DNA of 64,000 nucleotides from a virus: positions 30,875 to 94,874 of IMG/VR virus record IMGVR_UViG_3300032307_000369; one strand, written 5' to 3'. A program made the position numbers and the translations under genes. This document shows, piece by piece, positions 1,354 through 31,377 of the stretch. The notes beneath the pieces are model-generated. The model had not been told where the DNA came from, did no database searches, and saw only the letters and a list, made by a program, of their open reading frames with translations. The stretch's first letter is position 1. Every line of letters begins with the position of its first letter.

Positions 1354-2391
1354 ATGGACTTTGTATTAAACGTTCTTTTAAAGAACATATCATACCTATG
1401 GATGATATTCTTCATTATGATCTCAGCTGGACTAGCAAAAGAGTATCAACTCTTCGCCCCGGCTTTTGCCTATGTAAGAAATGTATTCCGTAGCAACAGG
1501 TTCGTTCTAGTTATCCTTAGTGCGATTGGGGGTATTCTCCCCATAGAGGGCCGGGTCACAGTGTCAGCAGGCTTGCTTGACACTGTTGCTCCAAAAGATG
1601 GTCCAGGTCGTGAAAAGATGGGTATTATTGATTATATGGCAACGCACCACTATTATATGTGGTCGCCGTTGGAAAAATCAGTAGTCATTCCTATTGCGGC
1701 TTTTGGTCTGTCTTATGCGGCATGGATCGGCATGATAGCTCCAGTTTTAATTGCTAGTATTTTATTCATTGGTTGGTACATTTGGTACAAGACCAAAGAA
1801 GACGATCTAGTAATTGTTCCTGGAAATTTTAAACTAAGTCAAGTAATGCGCAGTAGCGTTCCTATGTTTGTGGCCATTGGCGCTTACATATGGAGTGACA
1901 ACTTCATTGCCTGTTTTGGTTTATTATCGCTCTACTATGTTATCATAACTCAACAATGGAATCTAAAGAAACTTTTAGGTTATGTTAATTGGGAAGTGAT
2001 TGCTACAGTAGCAGTGGTCATCGTACTAGGAAACTATTTTAAATCCGAAGAAGCATATTTTACTGAACTGATTAAGGGAACAGCTATTGATCCTGCAACA
2101 TTAATTGGTATGGTAATTATTAGTGCTCTAGGATTTTTTGGCAGTTTTGCTATGGGCAGTAGCAGTAAGTTTATAGCGTTGGCTGTATTGATGGCTCAAA
2201 TCTTTGGAGTTGAGTACTTCTTATGGTTCTTCGTGGTTGACTATGCTGGTTACTTGTTAAGCCCAACTCATAAATGTGTAATGATTGGTAACCGATATTT
2301 TGGTACACCGTTAAAAACATATTATGCCGCATTAGGGGCATGGGTTGGTATCATGGCCGTAACAGCTGGGACGATCGTGTTTATTATCTAA
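1354..2391 (+). CDS. polytopic integral membrane protein, unknown family
   Basis: Strong SD TAAGGAG 7 nt upstream. Translation shows about 10 hydrophobic helices. Followed by a rho-independent terminator. Confidence 0.6.
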   Translation: MDFVLNVLLKNISYLWMIFFIMISAGLAKEYQLFAPAFAYVRNVFRSNRFVLVILSAIGGILPIEGRVTVSAGLLDTVAPKDGPGREKMGIIDYMATHHYYMWSPLEKSVVIPIAAFGLSYAAWIGMIAPVLIASILFIGWYIWYKTKEDDLVIVPGNFKLSQVMRSSVPMFVAIGAYIWSDNFIACFGLLSLYYVIITQQWNLKKLLGYVNWEVIATVAVVIVLGNYFKSEEAYFTELIKGTAIDPATLIGMVIISALGFFGSFAMGSSSKFIALAVLMAQIFGVEYFLWFFVVDYAGYLLSPTHKCVMIGNRYFGTPLKTYYAALGAWVGIMAVTAGTIVFII

Positions 2392-2396
2392 ACACA

Positions 2397-2425
2397 AGAG
2401 GGGCAGTAAGCCCCTCTTCTTAATT
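2397..2425 (+). terminator. rho-independent terminator
   Basis: AGAGGGGC-agtaa-GCCCCTCT, a perfect 8-bp GC-rich stem followed by TCTTAATT, lying 6 nt after the stop codon. Confidence 0.6.
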
Positions 2426-2500
2426 AAAAATATCGACTAGTATAACTAGTCGCTTGAGAATCGGAAGACGGCTCTCAACTTAAATCCAAAAGGTGATTAT

Positions 2501-3394
2501 ATGAAACAAATAGCAATATTAGCTATACTATTGGCATCTACATCAATAGCTATGGCGCAGAGTAGAATTGGCACTATTGCCGATGAAGTAGTAAAAGAAA
2601 CATCAACAAAGCAAAATCTTCCAGATCTTTCTGGAGAGTCACAAACACTGCCACCAGTAGTAGTCACAGCAGAAAAAATAAATCAGTTTGATCGAGTTGG
2701 TCCATACAATCAGCCAGTATGGACTACTACTAGAATGTTCCCTAGTACTAGAACTTATGTTATGACTCCGCCAGGTACAGTTATGTACGAAAAATGGTTT
2801 GACTTTAGAAATAGACGTAATGGTCCAACTCAGATTCGTATGCGTGATGAATTGGCTTTTGGTCTAGGAAATAGATTAGAACTAGACCTATACGCACACA
2901 CAGTTTATGATGGACCGTCAGAACAGAAAGAATTCAACTGGCGTGGCTTTAGTTGGGAGATACGATATGCTCTAGCTGATTGGGGCAAAATACCTGGTAA
3001 CCCTACGCTGTACTTTGAACATAAGTTAATTAACGGTCGTCAAGGAATTGAACCTAAACTTTTACTAGGGGACAGAATTGGTGAAACGGATTATATTTGG
3101 AGTGCCAACTTTATATATGAAGCTAACCTTGCCAAAGCCAATGCTGACAAAGAACGAGAGTACGCCGCTACATTTAGTTTAGGCAAGATTATTGATAATG
3201 ATCTTATGCTTGGATTCTCGTCTATGTATCGCTATCATAACTATGATCAAAACATTGAAGAGCTTTATGCTGGTCCGGTAGTAAATTGGCGGATCAGTAA
3301 ACAGGCTAGACTTAGTTTTGAACACATGCCTAGAATTAGAAGTGATGGATACAACGACAGCAGAAGTTTGTTTATTTTTGGATGGACTCTTTAA
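2501..3394 (+). CDS. secreted / outer-membrane-like protein, possibly a beta-barrel
   Basis: SD AAAGGTGA. N-terminal signal peptide MKQIAILAILLASTSIAMAQ. Alternating amphipathic strands and a C-terminal FIFGWTL. The specific family is uncertain. Confidence 0.5.
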   Translation: MKQIAILAILLASTSIAMAQSRIGTIADEVVKETSTKQNLPDLSGESQTLPPVVVTAEKINQFDRVGPYNQPVWTTTRMFPSTRTYVMTPPGTVMYEKWFDFRNRRNGPTQIRMRDELAFGLGNRLELDLYAHTVYDGPSEQKEFNWRGFSWEIRYALADWGKIPGNPTLYFEHKLINGRQGIEPKLLLGDRIGETDYIWSANFIYEANLAKANADKEREYAATFSLGKIIDNDLMLGFSSMYRYHNYDQNIEELYAGPVVNWRISKQARLSFEHMPRIRSDGYNDSRSLFIFGWTL

Positions 3395-3416
3395 TATCAA
3401 AAAATCCTATTTGCTA

Positions 3417-3615: not shown

Positions 3616-5505
3616 ATGTCAAAGATCATCGGTATCGACCTCGGTACAACAAATTCATGCGTAGCCGTTATAGAGAACGGAATCCCCAAAGTTATTGAAA
3701 ACAGCGAAGGTGCTAGAACAACACCATCAATTGTTGCCTATGCCAATAACGAAATCTTAGTAGGTGCTAGCGCCAAACGTCAAGCAGTTACTAATCCTAA
3801 AAATACAATCTATGCTAGTAAGCGTCTAATTGGACGCAAGTTTGAAGAGCAGGCTGTACAAAAAGACATTGACCTAATGCCTTACAAAATTGTTCGTGCA
3901 GACAACGGTGATGCTTGGATTGAAGCTAACAACGACAAACTTGCACCCCCACAAATCTCCGCTGAAGTTCTTCGCAAAATGAAGAAAACTGCTGAAGATT
4001 ACTTGGGCGAAACAGTTACTCAAGCAGTTATCACAGTACCAGCATACTTCAACGATAGTCAACGTCAAGCTACTAAGGATGCAGGTAAGATTGCAGGTTT
4101 AGAAGTATCGCGTATTATTAACGAACCAACTGCGGCTGCTCTTAGCTACGGTGTTGATAAGACTGACAAAGCTGATAGAAAAATTGCTGTTTATGACCTT
4201 GGTGGTGGAACATTTGATGTCAGCATTATTGACATTGCTGATGTTGATGGTGACAAACAAATTGAAGTACTGAGCACTAACGGAGACACGTTCTTGGGTG
4301 GTGAAGACTTTGACCAACGCATCATGGACTACTTAGTTGATGAGTTTAAGAAAGAACAAGGTGTTGACCTTAAGAAAGACATGTTGGCACTACAACGCTT
4401 AAAAGAAGCCAGTGAAAAAGCCAAGATTGAACTATCAAGCAGTGCGCAAACAGATGTAAACTTGCCTTACATTACAGCAGATGCAAGCGGACCTAGACAC
4501 ATGGCAATTAAATTGACTCGTGCTAAATTTGAGTCAATGGTTGAAGATTTGATTCAGCGCAGTTTAGATCCATGCCGTCAAGCTATGAAAGATGCAGGCG
4601 TGACAGCTAGCGACATTGACGAAGTTATTTTGGTTGGTGGTCAAACCCGTATGCCTAAGGTGCAAGAAGAAGTTGAAAAACTTTTTGGTAAGGCTCCACG
4701 TCGTGATGTAAATCCTGACGAAGCTGTTGCAGTTGGTGCGGCAATTCAAGGCGCTGTTCTAGGTGGTGATCGTAAAGACGTATTGCTATTAGACGTAACT
4801 CCTTTGAGTCTTGGTATTGAGACACTGGGTGGTGTGATGACCAAGATCATTCAAAAGAACACAACTATCCCAACTAAAGGACAACAAACTTTCTCTACAG
4901 CAGAAGATAATCAACCAGCTGTGACAATCAAGGTGTTCCAAGGCGAACGTGAACTTTGTCAGCATAATAAAATGTTAGGTGAATTTAATCTTGAAGGTAT
5001 TGCTCCAGCACGTCGTGGTCAGCCACAGATTGAAGTTACTTTTGACATTGATGCTAACGGCATTATGAACATTAGTGCTAAAGACAAATCAACTGGCAAA
5101 GAAAACAAGATCACTATTAAATCTGATAGCGGCTTGAGCAAAGAAGAAATTGAAAAAATGATTCAAGATGCTGAAGCAAATGCTGAGGCTGATAAGAAAG
5201 CACGTGAACTAATTGATTCTCGCAACAATGCAGAATCGCAAGTACACTCTGTTAAGAAAGACTTAACAGAATATGGTAGTAAAATTACTGAAGCTGATAA
5301 GTCTAACATAGAAACTGCTATTACACATGTAGAAGATTCTATCAAAGGCAATGATGCTGAAGTGATTACTAAATCAGTAAGTGCATTGTTTGAAGCAATG
5401 ACACCACTGATTCAAGCAAAGACTAGTACTGCTTCAGAAAGCAACAACAATAATCAAGACGATGTTGTTGATGCTCAATACACTGAAACACCTAAGTCTG
5501 AATAA
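3616..5505 (+). CDS. dnaK: molecular chaperone DnaK (Hsp70)
   Basis: SD AAAGGAG. Full-length Hsp70 signatures [18 protein letters not shown] and [11 protein letters not shown], collinear with proteobacterial DnaK from the nucleotide-binding domain to the acidic C-terminus. Confidence 0.95.
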
Positions 5506-19622: not shown

Positions 19623-19651
19623 TTGACAAATATATCATTAGAGCTTATAAT
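19623..19651 (+). promoter_or_regulatory. sigma70-like promoter, TTGACA-N17-TATAAT
   Basis: Perfect consensus hexamers with a 17-bp spacer, 7 nt upstream of the ATG at 19658. A CATAAATA motif on the opposite strand could serve the minus-strand cluster. Confidence 0.55.
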
Positions 19652-19906: not shown

Positions 19907-19981
19907 CTGGCGATAGTTCAACGGATAGAACAGTAGCCTTCTAAGCTATTAATCCAGGTTCGATTCCTGGTCGCCGGACCA
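19907..19981 (+). tRNA. tRNA-Arg (anticodon UCU)
   Basis: Cloverleaf folded by hand. Acceptor CTGGCGA/TCGCCGG, D arm GTTC/GAAC, anticodon stem GTAGC/GCTAT with loop CTTCTAA, T arm CCAGG-TTCGATT-CCTGG, discriminator A and an encoded CCA. Confidence 0.8.
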
Positions 19982-22067: not shown

Positions 22068-22662
22068 ACTACTAGGTTTCCCTTTATACAAAGAAGAAAT
22101 CAGTGCCGTAATTGGTGAATTACTTAGTACTAAATTTAGAGCTGATATCATACAAGCTGAAGCAAGCCAAGTAGATATAGGTGATGTAAACGTGAGTGCC
22201 TGTTATGATCCAGAATTGGACAGTATGGATCGACCTTGTATTGAAATAGTATTAGTTTATAATCCTTACGATACATTTTTAATTTTTGATCAAGAATTAT
22301 TTTCCACATTGACCAAAAGACTCTGTGATGCACTATCACATGAACAAATTCATCAACAACAGCACAGATCTAGATTTTGGGAAGATGTGGATTATGATGA
22401 CCCTGATGACGATGAAGCATATTTGGCTAACAAAGATGAAATTGATGCATACAGTCATAACATTGCCAATGAACTTTTGGACTTCGCAGACCTAAATCAG
22501 GTCTTGACATTAATACAATATCCAAGTAAAATAAAGATTGAACACAGCGTAAACCTTTGGGTTTACATGCAAACATTTAACAACGATACAAATCATCCAG
22601 TAATCAAAAGATTACTAAAAAAAGTTACTAAAATTCTACCTAAGGTAGTTTTACAAAGATAA
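22049..22662 (+). CDS. hypothetical acidic protein
   Basis: ATG at 22049 (MEPLKSKLL…) is preferred over the track start at 21979, which overlaps the previous gene by 89 nt. Carries a DYDDPDDDE acidic patch. Confidence 0.45.
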
Positions 22663-22779
22663 ATAAAATACTATGAAGACAACAGCATATCAATTTGCAT
22701 CCAATAAGAAGATTCCTTCTTCCGTTGTCTACTTGTCTTTAATCCCACGAATACGATTACAACACTCTTAAAAAGTTAA

Positions 22780-22880
22780 GGGAGTGTTGCTAATATTGGC
22801 CTAAGGGCAGAGCTTATACCTCTGTAAGCACCGTCTAGATAAGGCGGCGAATGTGGGTTCGATTCCCGCCACTCCTACCA
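22780..22880 (+). tRNA. atypical tRNA-like element (about 101 nt including CCA, anticodon unresolved)
   Basis: Canonical 3' half: T arm GTGGG-TTCGATT-CCCGC, acceptor 3' strand CACTCCT, discriminator A, CCA. The only complementary 5' strand is GGGAGTG, giving G1:U72 and about 25 extra nt in the 5' half. GGGAGTG also pairs with an upstream AACACTC as a hairpin. Confidence 0.35.
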
Positions 22881-22886
22881 AACATT

Positions 22887-22971
22887 GCCTGCATGGTGAA
22901 ATAGGTAAACACAGCAGACTTAAAATCTGCCGGAGAAATCCTTCCCAGTTCGATTCTGGGTGCAGGCACCA
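22887..22971 (+). tRNA. tRNA-Leu (anticodon UAA), class II
   Basis: Acceptor GCCTGCA/TGCAGGC, 3-bp D stem GTG/CAC with GG in the loop, anticodon stem GCAGA/TCTGC with loop CTTAAAA, 13-nt variable arm, T arm CCCAG-TTCGATT-CTGGG, A73 and CCA. Confidence 0.8.
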
Positions 22972-22978
22972 AATACAG

Positions 22979-23007
22979 TTGACAAAGATAACAAAAACAT
23001 ATATAAT
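22979..23007 (+). promoter_or_regulatory. sigma70-like promoter, TTGACA-N17-TATAAT, driving the second tRNA-Leu
   Basis: Perfect hexamers with a 17-bp spacer, ending 24 nt before the tRNA 5' end at 23031. Confidence 0.5.
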
Positions 23008-23030
23008 AAGGAACACTTTAAAAGGAAAAT

Positions 23031-23114
23031 GCGACTGTGGTGGAATGGTATACACAGCAGACTTAAAATCTGCCGCCGCAAGGATTGAGGGTTCGAGTCT
23101 CTCCAGTCGTACCA
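23031..23114 (+). tRNA. tRNA-Leu (anticodon UAA), second copy, class II
   Basis: Acceptor GCGACTG/CAGTCGT (G1:U72), D stem GTG/CAC, an anticodon arm identical to the first copy (GCAGA-CTTAAAA-TCTGC), long variable arm, T arm GAGGG-TTCGAGT-CTCTC, A73 and CCA. Confidence 0.75.
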
Positions 23115-23120
23115 AACATT

Positions 23121-23951
23121 ATGAGAAATCACTATTGGTCATGCAGTAAATTTGCCGACTGGCTTAGGGGCACTGCTAAACTAAAAATGGGCACTGCCGA
23201 GCAATGGGACGAGTGGACTACCACTGCCCAAATGAAACACAACTTCCGTTATTGGTTGGCAGAAGAAGGTTTGGATTATTTGCAAAAGATTGTTTATTGG
23301 CCTACAGATACTCTTTATGATTTTAAGTACTATATTAATAACCGTTGGGTTACTCGCACTCATAGTCTTACCGCTCACCCTCGTGACATCAAGCCCGGTA
23401 GCTGGTGCGACGTGGGCAACCGGTTCCTCCCTTGCTTATTCAACGAACTTGTTGACTATGTCGAAATTGAACTAGCTTGGTGGCATGTCGCTTGGGATGA
23501 AGAAGCACGTAAAAAATTTAAGAGCCCTTGGTATGCTACAGGTTGGTTCCGCTGGCGTACATGGCGTAATCCAGAATGCGGAATTGCCAATTTAGAGTGG
23601 CAACGTAAACTTATTCACGATGACGAATACTGTAAAGACGAAAAGTATTACATGAAGCCAACTCCCCAAGCTGTCAAAGCACAGGAGATTTTGGATCTTT
23701 ATATTTGGTGGACACAAATTTATCGCAATCGCCCAGACCCGTATGAAGCTAGTGGTTGGACAGCGGCTTGCGAAGCGCAACGTGAGGCTAACGGTGGTAA
23801 GTTAAGTTGGAATACTCCAAAAGATCCTGCACTTAAAAAGCAAAGCGACAAAGCACACAAGCTACTTCAAAAGATTGAAGCAGACTATGAGAAAGAAGAC
23901 GAACAAATGATGATTCGTTTAATCAAAGTTCGACATGGCTTGTGGACATAA
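23121..23951 (+). CDS. hypothetical Trp-rich protein
   Basis: The start is moved to the first ATG after the tRNA, because the track start at 23085 lies inside the tRNA. 276 aa with 20 or more Trp residues and no recognisable motif. Confidence 0.5.
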   Translation: MRNHYWSCSKFADWLRGTAKLKMGTAEQWDEWTTTAQMKHNFRYWLAEEGLDYLQKIVYWPTDTLYDFKYYINNRWVTRTHSLTAHPRDIKPGSWCDVGNRFLPCLFNELVDYVEIELAWWHVAWDEEARKKFKSPWYATGWFRWRTWRNPECGIANLEWQRKLIHDDEYCKDEKYYMKPTPQAVKAQEILDLYIWWTQIYRNRPDPYEASGWTAACEAQREANGGKLSWNTPKDPALKKQSDKAHKLLQKIEADYEKEDEQMMIRLIKVRHGLWT

Positions 23952-25649: not shown

Positions 25650-26198
25650 ATGACAAATACATATATTACATCAGATTTGCACTTTGGTCACAGAAACATT
25701 ATGAATTTCTGTCCAGTTAGTCGCGCACGATATAACGGTGACGTAGACTACATGAATGAACAAATGATAGTTGAATGGAACGCTATTGTTCAACCAGAAG
25801 ACACTGTTTACATTTTGGGTGACGTTGCGTTCTTGCCCACAGCCAAAGCTGTGAGTATCATGCGCCGTTTGAACGGTACAAAGATTTTGATTGAAGGTAA
25901 TCATGACCGTAAGGCATTGCATGATCCTGTATTCCGCAGTTGTTTTTCTGAAGTACACAAGTATCTTTGGATTGATTACAAGGGCACACAGGTAATCATG
26001 TTTCATTATCCTATTGCAGAATGGGATCAAATGCACAGGGGCAGTGTACACTTTCATGGACACTTGCATGGCAATGTCAGCGGAATGGAAAAATATCGCT
26101 GCCGTGACATGGGCATGGATGCAACTGGTAACATTGTGACCAAAATGGAAGATGCTATCAAGGACGCTCTTACGGGCGAAATCAAAAGTCATCATTAA
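25650..26198 (+). CDS. metallophosphoesterase, candidate RNA 3'-phosphatase
   Basis: DLHFGH, GDVAF, GNHD, FHYP and GHLHGN MPP motifs. The ATG lies 7 nt after TATAAT, so the transcript is near-leaderless. Confidence 0.7.
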   Translation: MTNTYITSDLHFGHRNIMNFCPVSRARYNGDVDYMNEQMIVEWNAIVQPEDTVYILGDVAFLPTAKAVSIMRRLNGTKILIEGNHDRKALHDPVFRSCFSEVHKYLWIDYKGTQVIMFHYPIAEWDQMHRGSVHFHGHLHGNVSGMEKYRCRDMGMDATGNIVTKMEDAIKDALTGEIKSHH

Positions 26199-26207
26199 GG
26201 AATCAGT

Positions 26208-26672
26208 ATGGCTAAGTGTTATCAACTTGTTGGAGTTCCAGGCAGTGGAAAAAGCACATGGATCAAAAATCAAGATTGGGCAGTGGACTGTGTGGTAGTT
26301 TCCACAGACGAATTTGTTGAAGATTATGCTCGCGAGTGTGGTTCAACTTATAATGAAGTGTTTGACGACTACATGCCCACTGCTGTTAATCTAATGGCTG
26401 ACCAAGTTGTTCGTGCTCGTGAAGCAGGCAAAGATATTATTTGGGATCAAACTAGTACTACTCAAAAAAGTCGTGCTCGTAAATTCCGTATGTTGCCTGA
26501 GTACGATCATATTGCTGTAGTTTTTACTACACCTGAACAAGACGAGTTGGCTAAAAGATTGGCTAGCCGTCCAGGAAAAAATATTCCTGCTCACGTTATG
26601 CGTAGTATGATTAACCATTTTGAAATGCCTGATGAAGAAGAAGGATTTAAAGAAATTTGGAGAGTATCATGA
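26208..26672 (+). CDS. pnk: polynucleotide 5'-kinase (T4 Pnk kinase-domain-like)
   Basis: VGVPGSGKSTW is identical to the T4 Pnk P-loop context (GCPGSGKSTW). HVMRSMINHFE matches T4 Pnk VLRSMYKSM. There is no HAD phosphatase domain. Confidence 0.7.
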   Translation: MAKCYQLVGVPGSGKSTWIKNQDWAVDCVVVSTDEFVEDYARECGSTYNEVFDDYMPTAVNLMADQVVRAREAGKDIIWDQTSTTQKSRARKFRMLPEYDHIAVVFTTPEQDELAKRLASRPGKNIPAHVMRSMINHFEMPDEEEGFKEIWRVS

Positions 26673-27115
26673 AACAAGAGTTGGACGAACAACTATGTAC
26701 CAAGTACCCTAAGATATTTGTAAACCGTCATGAAGACATGACTACTACTGCTATGTGTTGGGGCTTTGGTTGTGGCGATGGATGGTATCAAATACTTGAC
26801 AGTCTTTGCAGTCAAATTCAACACCACATTGATTGGAACAACAGTAACTTTGATAAAGGTTATACTCAATACAAACAAGTTCCGCAAGTGGTTGTTGATC
26901 AAGTCAAAGAAAAATTTGGTGGGTTACGTTTTTATTACCAAGGTGGTGATGACTACATTCACGGACTAGTTAGCATGGCAGAATCTTGGGCAGTTAACAC
27001 TTGTGAAGAGTGTGGATCGTCTGGAAAGATTCGACATGGCGGATGGATCAAAACTCTTTGTGATAAGCACGAAGAAGAGCGGCAACAACGATATAAAGAA
27101 CGATTCGATGTTTAA
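26669..27115 (+). CDS. Cys-rich hypothetical protein
   Basis: ATG with GGAGAG 8 nt upstream. Multiple Cys pairs (CWGFGCGDGW, CEECGSSGK, LCDKH). Lies between the kinase and the ligase. Confidence 0.45.
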   Translation: MKQELDEQLCTKYPKIFVNRHEDMTTTAMCWGFGCGDGWYQILDSLCSQIQHHIDWNNSNFDKGYTQYKQVPQVVVDQVKEKFGGLRFYYQGGDDYIHGLVSMAESWAVNTCEECGSSGKIRHGGWIKTLCDKHEEERQQRYKERFDV

Positions 27116-27989
27116 AGAAGACTTAAAGAAGTATGTAGAAACTTCTAACCTAGTTAACATGAAAGAGTGTGGTGACGGTATCTACGTGCTAAAGTACAAG
27201 AAGAAAGTGTTCTACGATAACTTGTGGAACGAATACATTGCTGAATGTCGTGGCTCTATTGTGGACAAGGATTTCAACTTGGTTGCTTATCCATTCACAA
27301 AGATCTACAACTATGGTATTGAAAAGGAAGCACCAGTGCTTGCTCCAGATACTAAGGTAACTGCTTTCCGCAAGGTTAACGGTTTTATGGTTGCTTGTAC
27401 ATTGCATAACGGCAAACTGTTAGTGAGTACTACTGGTAGCACAGACAGCGACTATGTAAACATGGCACGTGAACTGATTGACGAAGCAAAGTACTTAGAC
27501 TTGTGCTCACGTTGGGCAGGTTATACATTTATGTTTGAGTGCGTTCATCGTAACGACCCACACATTGTTCCTGAAAAGGAAGGTATGTATGTCCTAGGCT
27601 ATCGTGAAAATAAATGGCACACTCCTGTAGAACATGATCCGTTCATGTTAATGGAAATGAGTCGTGTGTTAGATTGTTTTGTGCCAGAAAGCATAATGAC
27701 CAATATGGCACGTTTACAACAGTTGGCTAAGGAATGTAAGCATGAAGGTTATGTATTCTATACTGACGATGGTGTAAGTGCCAAAATCAAGAGCCCTTAC
27801 TATTTGACTTCAAAGTGGGTTGCCCGAAATCCGCGCACAGACAAATTGGTGAACTTGCAAAATGACATCAAGCACAATCTTGACGAAGAATACTATCCAC
27901 TCGTGGATGCTATCCGTGCTAACATTGTTGAATACACTGCTATGGACGAGCAAGCTCGACTAGCCTGGGTAAGGGAACAATTGGCATGA
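27108..27989 (+). CDS. ATP-dependent RNA ligase (Rnl1-like nucleotidyltransferase)
   Basis: Motif I FRKVNGFMVA (KxNG), motif IV EGYVFYTDDG and motif V AKIKSPYY. The start is set at the ATG overlapping the upstream stop (ATGTTTAA). Confidence 0.65.
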   Translation: MFKEDLKKYVETSNLVNMKECGDGIYVLKYKKKVFYDNLWNEYIAECRGSIVDKDFNLVAYPFTKIYNYGIEKEAPVLAPDTKVTAFRKVNGFMVACTLHNGKLLVSTTGSTDSDYVNMARELIDEAKYLDLCSRWAGYTFMFECVHRNDPHIVPEKEGMYVLGYRENKWHTPVEHDPFMLMEMSRVLDCFVPESIMTNMARLQQLAKECKHEGYVFYTDDGVSAKIKSPYYLTSKWVARNPRTDKLVNLQNDIKHNLDEEYYPLVDAIRANIVEYTAMDEQARLAWVREQLA

Positions 27990-30576: not shown

Positions 30577-31377
30577 ATGAGCTATCCGTATTTGATTCAA
30601 GGCAATAATGTTGTTGTGGTAATTGACAACAAGCCGCACACTATCAGCAAGACACATATCACTTACCAAAAGGTAGTTGATGCAATTAAAGCTAATGACT
30701 GGGAAACAGTTAAAGACACAATTGAACCTAAAAAGGTTGTACTAGAGTACGGCAAAGGTAACGTTGAAGTCCAAGGAGAACAGTTGTTTTGGAAAGGCAA
30801 AGCGTTTCATAATGCTTTGGCAACTCGTATGATCCAAATGTTGCAAGATGGTTTCCCAGTGGAACCTCTAGTCAACTTTATGGAAAATTTGATGAAGAAC
30901 CCTAGTTACCGTTCAGTAAATGAACTGTATGGTTTCTTGGAAAAGAACAACTTGCCAATTACCAGCGATGGTCACTTCCTTGCTTATAAGAAAGTTCGTA
31001 AGGATTATAAAGACTGTCATACTGGTACAATGGATAACAGTATTGGTCAAGTGGTTGAAATGGAACGTCATAGTGTTGACGACAATGCCAACAATACTTG
31101 CAGTTCTGGTTTGCACTTCTGTTCCAAAGAGTACTTGAATAGTTTTGGTGGCGACCGCACTGTGATTGTTAAAATCAATCCTGCAGATGTTGTTAGTATT
31201 CCCACTGACTATGACTTTAGCAAGGGTCGTGCTTGCCGATACGAAGTTATTGGTGAGTTGGGTGTACATCCAGACGATGCTTTCAAAGCACCTGTTCAAG
31301 ATGAAGCCTACACACAAGAGCAACTGGATGCCGCAGTTAAGGCCGCAGTTGAAGCCGCTCTTAAGGTAACACAATGA
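30577..31377 (+). CDS. rIIB: rIIB-like protein
   Basis: About 267 aa, coupled to the upstream gene (TAAAATG). Assigned by synteny and size only. Confidence 0.35.
   Translation: MSYPYLIQGNNVVVVIDNKPHTISKTHITYQKVVDAIKANDWETVKDTIEPKKVVLEYGKGNVEVQGEQLFWKGKAFHNALATRMIQMLQDGFPVEPLVNFMENLMKNPSYRSVNELYGFLEKNNLPITSDGHFLAYKKVRKDYKDCHTGTMDNSIGQVVEMERHSVDDNANNTCSSGLHFCSKEYLNSFGGDRTVIVKINPADVVSIPTDYDFSKGRACRYEVIGELGVHPDDAFKAPVQDEAYTQEQLDAAVKAAVEAALKVTQ

Follow-up and report, generated by a model that had tools for sequence, protein, structure and literature searches.

The window analysed here, the whole of a 64,000-nucleotide (nt) stretch of viral DNA (IMG/VR record IMGVR_UViG_3300032307_000369, positions 30,875 to 94,874), carries a small set of transfer RNA (tRNA) genes, among them an over-length element at 22780-22880 on the plus strand that we read as a candidate tRNA for the isoleucine codon AUA with an additional, anticodon-like arm. 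The element is 98 nt long, or 101 nt with its encoded CCA, and belongs to a phage family of 101-105-nt tRNAs. Its acceptor stem joins the 5' strand GGGAGUG (22780-22786) to CACUCCU (22870-22876) in 7 base pairs (bp) that open with G1:U72, and a degenerate D region, GCUAAUAUUGGCCUAAGGG (22789-22807), holds G18G19 and, at 22795, the purine of the Levitt pair, R15. Hairpin 1, CAGAG-CUUAUAC-CUCUG (22808-22824), which we take as the anticodon arm, presents the anticodon UAU at 22815-22817 and is followed by a linker, UAAGCA (22825-22830), whose AGC, found in 74/74 family sequences, can pair with G10-C11-U12. The extra arm, hairpin 2, is CCGUC-UAGAUAA-GGCGG (22831-22847), with GAU at 22838-22840. 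The 5-nt equivalent of a variable loop, CGAAU (22848-22852), ends in the pyrimidine of the Levitt pair, Y48, and leads into the T arm GUGGG-UUCGAUU-CCCGC (22853-22869), the discriminator A73, and the encoded CCA (22877-22880), 6 nt before the next tRNA gene. The initial annotation of this locus had described an element with a tRNA 3' half, and the acceptor strand, T arm, A73, and CCA are indeed all present.

The Rfam tRNA model (RF00005) matches 22780-22877 with 38.7 bits (gathering score 29) over its full length, model positions 1-71, at the cost of a 31-nt insertion that the alignment places in the D loop. A permissive Rfam scan (E ≤ 1) of 22650-23200 returns no family besides tRNA and no intron family, and ARAGORN makes no call at 22780-22880, in keeping with the earlier view that no cloverleaf of normal length lies there. 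The 5' half had been called over-length; the excess is real, but it is a discrete, conserved hairpin 2 placed after the anticodon arm rather than diffuse extra length on the 5' side. An insert-containing tRNA, one of the options then listed, is essentially right, the extra 23 nt being a covarying hairpin with an invariant loop. The proposed alternative hairpin with an upstream AACACUC holds for the window, where CAACACUC/GAGUGUUG form 8 bp, and for a syntenic relative, L099, but it is confined to this lineage: across the family (83 distinct flanks), complementarity between leader and acceptor strand equals that of shuffled controls. Single-sequence thermodynamic folding is of no help in choosing between folds, with a z-score of only -1.86 and a minimum-free-energy structure that disrupts hairpin 1.

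A phage family with a covarying core

Searching 50,697 phage records with blastn recovers full-length homologues of ~97-102 nt in unrelated phages: the T1-like coliphages BEK6, EC3a, ESCO41, PCEc3, and Opt-79, Klebsiella phage KP13-26, Vibrio phages WD615, Pylo, River4, and 12VC501, Pectobacterium phages Arno162 and Wc4, Xanthomonas phage Xoo-sp13, and a Synechococcus myophage. Most copies in the deposited records are unannotated, and some are labelled as a "tRNA-Ile" of 95-102 nt. A motif scan of IMG/VR that leaves hairpin 2 free retrieves ~70 true members, all with the loop YAGAUAA, and a scan that leaves hairpin 1 free retrieves 85 viral contigs with 78 unique sequences, every one of which has the hairpin 1 loop YUUAUAN, with anticodon UAU, although the anticodon was unconstrained in the search. 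A73 is likewise found in 78/78, an encoded CCA in 76, and a perfect 7-bp acceptor stem in 77. The family is phage-specific: against these 85 viral contigs the same pattern gives only 4 matches in 185,579 bacterial and archaeal genomes. Many members sit within tRNA arrays; in the T1-like coliphages the long tRNA and tRNA-Arg(UCU) are the sole tRNAs, and in phages with ~20 tRNAs it accompanies an ordinary tRNA-Ile(GAU). Beside the element, the carrier phage records examined show no conserved gene for a partner protein. The two contigs syntenic with the window, L126 and L099, are ~80% identical to it over 9-13 kb and have the same two tRNA-Leu genes and promoter, and despite flanks of ~80% identity their long element is identical at 101/101 positions, which points to a tRNA-type gene under strong selection.

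Some family members and related loci depart from the common form. Four members (L040, L068, L076, and L078) are 121-124 nt long, with an A-rich 15-17-nt linker 5' of hairpin 2 and a third small hairpin (GUC-NNNN-GAC) 3' of it, and retain all remaining family features. In two metagenomic copies, L120 (minus strand, ~1050-1755) and L033 (~1976-3400), hairpin 2 is interrupted by insertions of 0.6-1.3 kb that bring a tRNA of their own: a tRNA(CAU) together with an HNH endonuclease open reading frame (ORF) in L120, and a long tRNA-Ile(UAU) of a different lineage with a 327-residue Cys-rich ORF in L033. These insertions look like homing-endonuclease cassettes aimed at the extra-arm region and carrying a replacement AUA decoder. 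Long tRNA(UAU) genes of two kinds occur on contig L043, one from the main family at 13191-13291 and one of 89 nt at 14087-14175 that ARAGORN calls, and ARAGORN reports transfer-messenger RNA genes on both L043 and L233. A match in the T5-like Salmonella phage vB_STy-RN29 (L362, 392-432) was rejected as a family member, being only the 3' part of a tRNA (T arm, 3' acceptor strand, and ACCA) that stands alone directly 3' of a small coding sequence; it resembles the 3' remnant of the disrupted copy L120.

The covariance comparison with homologous phages that the initial annotation had suggested was made by counting pairs in an alignment of 74 unique family sequences (A1), with slid partners and shuffles as controls, and all four helices covary. 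Standard pairs occupy 96.4% of helix cells, a share that drops to 41-51% once the 3' strands are shifted out of register; both partners vary in 21 pairs, and the observed covariation score is reached in 0 of 500 shuffles. Covarying pairs make up 7/7 of the acceptor stem, 5/5 of hairpin 1, 5/5 of hairpin 2, and 3/5 of the T stem, and the acceptor and T stems, paired in 99.8% and 99.7% of cells, form a 7/5 branch in which both stems are supported by covariation. The first acceptor pair, 1-72, is G-U in 44 sequences, A-U in 16, G-C in 10, and C-G in 4. In the D region, GCUAAU.UUGG and G18G19 are invariant, and the purine in GCUAAU-R-UUGG pairs with the pyrimidine directly 5' of the T stem (alignment columns 16/79) as the Levitt pair 15-48, which is A-U in 47 of the 74 sequences and G-C in the other 27. 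This perfect covariation argues that the RNA folds into a tRNA-like core, as predicted from the alignment. An alternative stem, formed by G10-C11-U12 and the AGC after hairpin 1 (22827-22829), pairs in 100% of sequences with both strands invariant; covariation cannot choose between this stem and the standard D stem because the GCU and AGC strands do not vary. At anticodon-stem position 31-39 (A1 columns 33/41), 45 of the 74 sequences have a C-A type mismatch, leaving in effect a 4-bp stem, and the window copy has G-C.

The decoding arm, the extra arm, and the AUA codon

A wider superfamily bears on which hairpin occupies the anticodon position. Two further scans were made, one independent of the D arm and one fixing only a canonical D arm and the UAU loop and leaving the extra arm unconstrained, and they recover further lineages of 89-103 nt with ordinary 4-bp D stems in which hairpin 1 lies exactly at the anticodon position; ARAGORN calls these canonical-D lineages tRNA-Ile(tat), at 90-95 nt. 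The distance from acceptor stem to hairpin 1 is the canonical 19 nt. Hairpin 2 comes after the anticodon stem, and a variable loop of normal size (5-6 nt), in many cases AGGUC or CUGAU, lies 3' of it. Among the 93 unique genes of the D-arm and UAU-loop scan, ~85 have an extra arm, every intact arm loop starts YAGAU, and only three are plain tRNAs of 74-75 nt. When all loci are fetched, 234 of 239 unique tRNA(UAU) genes have the extra arm; of these, 232 have A73, and the loop starts YAGAU in 234/234, in a sample part of which was gathered with patterns requiring AGAU. The 234 long genes have 65 distinct extra-arm stems of 3-6 bp, with 1-7 unpaired nt before the arm and a 3' linker of 5-6 nt after it in 212, and most superfamily members have a canonical D arm. 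Because the canonical-D lineages place hairpin 1 at the anticodon position, we assign hairpin 1 (UAU) as the predicted anticodon arm and hairpin 2 as an additional arm placed 5' of an ordinary variable loop of 5 nt. The window element belongs to a sub-family with a decayed D stem and a linker that gained AGC.

The loop of the extra arm resembles a second anticodon loop. In the tRNA-Ile(GAU) genes that the phages themselves carry, the anticodon loop reads CUGAUAA or UUGAUAA, and the hairpin 2 loops CAGAUAA and UAGAUAA are the same loop with U33 replaced by A, on unrelated stems. YAGAUAA is found in every member of the core family, and across the superfamily only YAGAU is invariant. A reading of the loop as a mimic of the AUA codon, kissing the UAU anticodon, fits YAGAUAA on paper but was rejected, as AGAU persists and AUA does not in the loops of other lineages, such as CAGAUUA and UAGAUGG.

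The codons read by the four tRNA genes of the window, AUA, UUA, and AGA, account in its 54 ORFs for 19.8% of isoleucine codons, 34% of leucine codons, and 36% of arginine codons, respectively; UUA is the top leucine codon, which bears out the earlier argument from codon demand. A large homologue of DnaK in the window was compared with E. coli DnaK as a test for AUA reassignment and proved uninformative, having one AUA codon in its conserved part. Comparison of orthologous codons with L126 and L099 is more telling: at 37 changed AUA positions the replacement is AUU or AUC in 25, valine in 5, leucine in 5, and glutamate in 2, a profile that resembles that of AUU and AUC, unlike that of UUA and CUA. 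Because AUA exchanges with AUU and AUC as other isoleucine codons do, it is predicted to mean isoleucine in this phage, and the element has the isoleucine identity features A73 and UAU-A37.

Neighbouring genes

ARAGORN finds three tRNA genes in the window, all on the plus strand: tRNA-Arg(UCU) at 19907-19981 (Rfam 65.1 bits) and two copies of tRNA-Leu(UAA), Leu-1 at 22887-22971 (59.5 bits) and Leu-2 at 23031-23114 (55.5 bits). The two leucine genes first noticed from the sequence are thus called by both ARAGORN and Rfam; they lie 59 nt apart and have in common an identical 24-nt block that includes the anticodon arm (22908-22932 and 23051-23075). Between them, at 22979-23007 on the plus strand, lies the perfect sigma-70-type promoter TTGACA-N17-TATAAT that had been reported there, a 12/12 consensus match conserved in L099 and L126. 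Leu-1 has one substitution relative to these relatives, whereas their Leu-2 differs from the window copy in the anticodon stem, the variable arm, the T arm, and the 1-72 pair, so that Leu-2 is a fast-evolving gene; part of the window copy may derive from Leu-1 by gene conversion. The G1:U72 pair had been taken as a link between the long element and Leu-2, and this is a coincidence: the pair is a trait of the long-element family (44/74), but in Leu-2 it occurs in the window only, the L099 and L126 copies having G1-C72. The gene for tRNA-Arg(UCU) is preceded, at ~255 nt, by a second perfect TTGACA-N17-TATAAT (19623-19651, plus strand), and the long tRNA, at ~250 nt, by an 11/12 match (22504-22532); both could possibly drive tRNA transcription. 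The duplicated tRNA-Leu(UAA), the promoter, and the codon rationale are ordinary biology for a phage tRNA cluster.

The RNA-repair cassette noted in the neighbourhood is likewise present, at 25650-27989, 3-5 kb downstream of the long tRNA, and comprises a phosphoesterase (25650-26198), a PNK-like ATPase (26208-26672), and an Rnl1 ligase (27003-27989), followed by rIIA. Elsewhere in the window, the plus-strand ORF at 3616-5505 encodes a full-length DnaK/Hsp70 homologue with a near-gapless alignment to E. coli DnaK (E = 1.6e-267); it is the largest conserved ORF, its matches are bacterial-like, and its single AUA codon in the conserved part sets it apart from the rest of the window. A 681-residue ORF at 16495-18540 (plus strand) fuses a CHASE2 sensor domain to an adenylate/guanylate cyclase catalytic domain (1.8e-39 and 2.7e-18), an unusual piece of phage cargo.

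Proposed function, rival readings, and significance

The best explanation of the whole that we can offer, and one we hold tentatively, is that 22780-22880 encodes a functional elongator tRNA that would be charged with isoleucine, would read AUA through an unconventional UAU anticodon, and would use its extra arm as a signal to isoleucyl-tRNA synthetase (IleRS). The long tRNA would be co-transcribed with its neighbours, excised like any tRNA, charged, and used on the ribosome through hairpin 1, as part of a rare-codon cluster (Ile-AUA, two copies of Leu-UUA, and Arg-AGA) serving an AT-rich jumbo-type phage. A tRNA with a UAU anticodon is a poor substrate for wild-type E. coli IleRS; the residue responsible, Trp905, is conserved in tilS-bearing species, and a W905R change restores the charging of UAU tRNA (PMC3575796). 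The cultured carriers infect E. coli, Klebsiella, Vibrio, Pectobacterium, Xanthomonas, and Synechococcus, which are bacteria of the tilS-bearing kind, and because the T1-like coliphages carry only tRNA-Arg(UCU) and the long tRNA, host factors must suffice for its use. A surrogate GAU signal is proposed because the IleRS of tilS-bearing hosts accepts GAU or lysidine-AU and rejects UAU: the extra arm would show the host enzyme an identity signal of the G34-A35-U36 type in place of the decoding anticodon, AUA decoding would become independent of host TilS and lysidine, and A33 would keep the surrogate loop from decoding. We regard this surrogate step as possible yet doubtful, and the fuller picture of a "two-headed" tRNA, in which decoding (UAU in hairpin 1) and synthetase identity (the GAU loop of hairpin 2) would be split between two anticodon-type arms, as a shade more doubtful. 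In the sub-family of the window, the GCU/AGC stem may even let hairpin 2 take the anticodon-arm position in an alternative fold, which is speculative.

Several observations weigh against this proposal. The surrogate step draws on the resemblance of the loops and on published enzyme specificity. Loop positions 37-38 differ between lineages (AA, UA, GG, UG, and GA), and t6A37 has been reported as an IleRS determinant (PMC9976931). The extra-arm stem has only 3-4 bp in many lineages, so the arm cannot simply stand in everywhere for a 5-bp anticodon arm, and the invariant A at position 33 goes beyond simple mimicry. Class I synthetases generally bind with the variable region of the tRNA toward solvent, which makes access of IleRS to the arm problematic. 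The D stem in its standard register is 57% paired, with two reliable pairs, 11-24 and 12-23, and 10-25 in 1 of 74 sequences; ARAGORN leaves the window element uncalled, as it does the family members L001, L003, and L013; and ordinary tRNA(UAU) genes of 74-77 nt, few as they are, occur in phage contigs.

In a rival reading, the extra arm of an AUA-reading tRNA-Ile(UAU) would have no part in charging and would act in the accuracy of decoding or in the modification of the anticodon; it might block the wobble of U34 onto AUG (Met), or recruit or exclude a wobble-modifying enzyme. On E. coli ribosomes, AUA and AUG are both bound by a UAU tRNA that lacks modification (PMC3575796), which would pose a fidelity problem for the phage too, and the unpaired 31-39 position in 45/74 sequences is a hint of tuning of the anticodon arm. 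We nonetheless think this unlikely, because it leaves unexplained why the anticodon loop of tRNA-Ile(GAU) in particular is copied, because no protein gene that might act as a partner is conserved beside the element, and because the arm lies far from the anticodon in any standard L-shape. The extra arm may instead have a decoy or regulatory role, which the initial annotation had raised for the element as a whole; in its anti-defence form, the arm would be a decoy or shield against a host anticodon nuclease or another tRNA-targeting factor aimed at tRNA-Ile, with A33 making it uncleavable. The Rnl1, PNK, and phosphoesterase genes downstream suggest that tRNA damage is a selective pressure here, and the arm's loop resembles an anticodon loop in all but position 33. 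No anticodon nuclease specific to tRNA-Ile is known to us, however, and the searches brought up none; the phages that bear the arm differ widely in host and genome size, and among them are 45-kb T1-like phages that lack repair genes. The arm is always on a UAU tRNA and never on another, which favours a role bound up with AUA decoding. This reading is quite unlikely.

A different fold, in the form that the Rfam alignment takes, would make hairpin 2 the anticodon arm of a tRNA-Ile(GAU)-like molecule and hairpin 1 a 31-nt insertion in the D loop with a non-decoding role. It gains from the three Watson-Crick pairs that GCU and AGC form in 74/74 sequences, against two reliable pairs for the other D stem, from the 4 nt and Y48 after hairpin 2 that would make a normal variable loop, and from one member, L121, which ARAGORN parses with a GAU anticodon. 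But the classical anticodon loop (Y32 U33 ... A37) is the one on hairpin 1, with hairpin 2 having A33 in place of the near-universal U33, the spacing from acceptor stem to hairpin 1 is canonical, the fold is impossible for the related lineages with 4-bp canonical D stems, and the phages with full tRNA sets already own a normal tRNA-Ile(GAU) and have no other AUA decoder called; together these make it improbable. It is more improbable still that the element is a class-II-type tRNA charged by leucyl- or seryl-tRNA synthetase (LeuRS or SerRS), with AUA recoded or ambiguously decoded in infected cells. A long extra arm and A73, the LeuRS discriminator, would suit such a tRNA, nev-tRNA-Ile(UAU) is leucylated in vitro (PMC3333845, PMC4300185), and UAU is the commonest allo-tRNA anticodon (PMC5389517). 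Yet AUA behaves as an isoleucine rather than a leucine codon in 25 of 37 changes, the branch is 7/5 and not 8/4 or 9/3, the discriminator is A73 and not G73 or U73, and the arm lies upstream of a complete variable loop, unlike the arms of Leu, Ser, and Tyr tRNAs, and copies an isoleucine anticodon loop. Hardly credible, finally, is a pseudo-tRNA relic or an intron-interrupted tRNA in need of splicing, two further options of the initial annotation that we reject. The missing ARAGORN call and the degenerate D stem could be read that way, but the element is identical in relatives of ~80% identity, every helix covaries, and conservation extends over ~78 unique sequences, all with A73 and 76/78 with CCA; the loop of the extra hairpin is the most conserved part, with no intron signature and no match to an Rfam intron family, and truly disrupted copies (L120, L033, and L300) look quite different.

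Among known tRNAs, the nearest functional analogue of an AUA-reading long tRNA would be the tRNA-Ile2(UAU) of Mycoplasma mobile and other tilS-less bacteria, which likewise has UAU rather than lysidine-AU and A73, and faces the same problems of IleRS recognition and AUG misreading (PMC3575796). The M. mobile molecule is an ordinary class I tRNA of ~76 nt, however, and the solution lies in the enzyme (IleRS Arg865) and the ribosome, whereas the phage tRNA has an extra arm with a GAU loop and meets unadapted host enzymes. Lysidine-type bacterial tRNA-Ile2, in which TilS converts CAU to lysidine-AU, is unlike the phage family, all members of which have UAU. The class II tRNAs of bacteria (Leu, Ser, and Tyr) resemble it in having a fifth helix between the anticodon and T arms and a total length of ~85-100 nt; they differ in that the phage arm lies 5' of a complete 5-nt variable loop, after 1-7 unpaired nt, with an invariant YAGAU loop and a UAU anticodon, while the arm loops of Leu, Ser, and Tyr tRNAs are not anticodon-like, and the D stem of the phage sub-family is degenerate. 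Nematode nev-tRNAs and bacterial allo-tRNAs share the long arm, often the UAU anticodon, and an anticodon foreign to Leu, Ser, or Tyr (PMC3333845, PMC4300185, PMC5389517), but they have bodies of Leu or Ser identity and pose a threat of miscoding, and the allo-tRNAs have 8/4 or 9/3 branches with G73 or U73, in contrast to the 7/5 branch, A73, isoleucine-like AUA usage, and Ile-type arm loop of the phage tRNA.

The phage setting is familiar. The tRNA clusters of T4, T5, and Felix O1-like phages also have short spacers, strong promoters of their own, and tRNAs for codons that the phage favours more than typical hosts do, and the Rnl1/PNK cassette near the window's tRNAs recalls the T4-type Pnkp/Rnl1 repair system; HNH endonuclease genes are interspersed in some relatives. 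T4 decodes AUA with a CAU-anticodon tRNA-Ile2 that depends on host TilS. T5 does so too, with a CAU-anticodon tRNA-Ile2 that needs host TilS (T5 record), whereas the long-tRNA family has UAU and an extra arm. Homology to the T5 stable RNAs I and III, or to the T5 "tRNA-like" RNAs of similar length, was considered and rejected, there being no sequence resemblance. Full-text searches found no description of this architecture, in a literature of which most subscription-journal papers lay outside their coverage, so that an earlier description is possible; the family makes up a large, phage-specific form of tRNA-Ile(UAU), apparently new to the literature, in which a second arm resembles an anticodon arm.

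Alone among the sense codons, AUA is read in bacteria only after chemical rewriting of a tRNA anticodon (lysidine), since IleRS rejects a plain UAU and such an anticodon also misreads AUG. The carriers of the long tRNA number in the hundreds of phages, including easily handled T1-like coliphages as well as Klebsiella, Vibrio, and Pectobacterium phages. Since standard finders miss or mis-parse the long genes and most GenBank phage copies are unannotated, inventories of phage tRNAs and analyses of codon compensation have systematically gone without an AUA decoder. If the extra arm enables charging, it would represent a new principle of tRNA identity, in which the identity anticodon is physically apart from the decoding anticodon, it would explain how these phages escape dependence on host TilS, and it could offer a scaffold for engineering orthogonal or codon-reassigning tRNAs.

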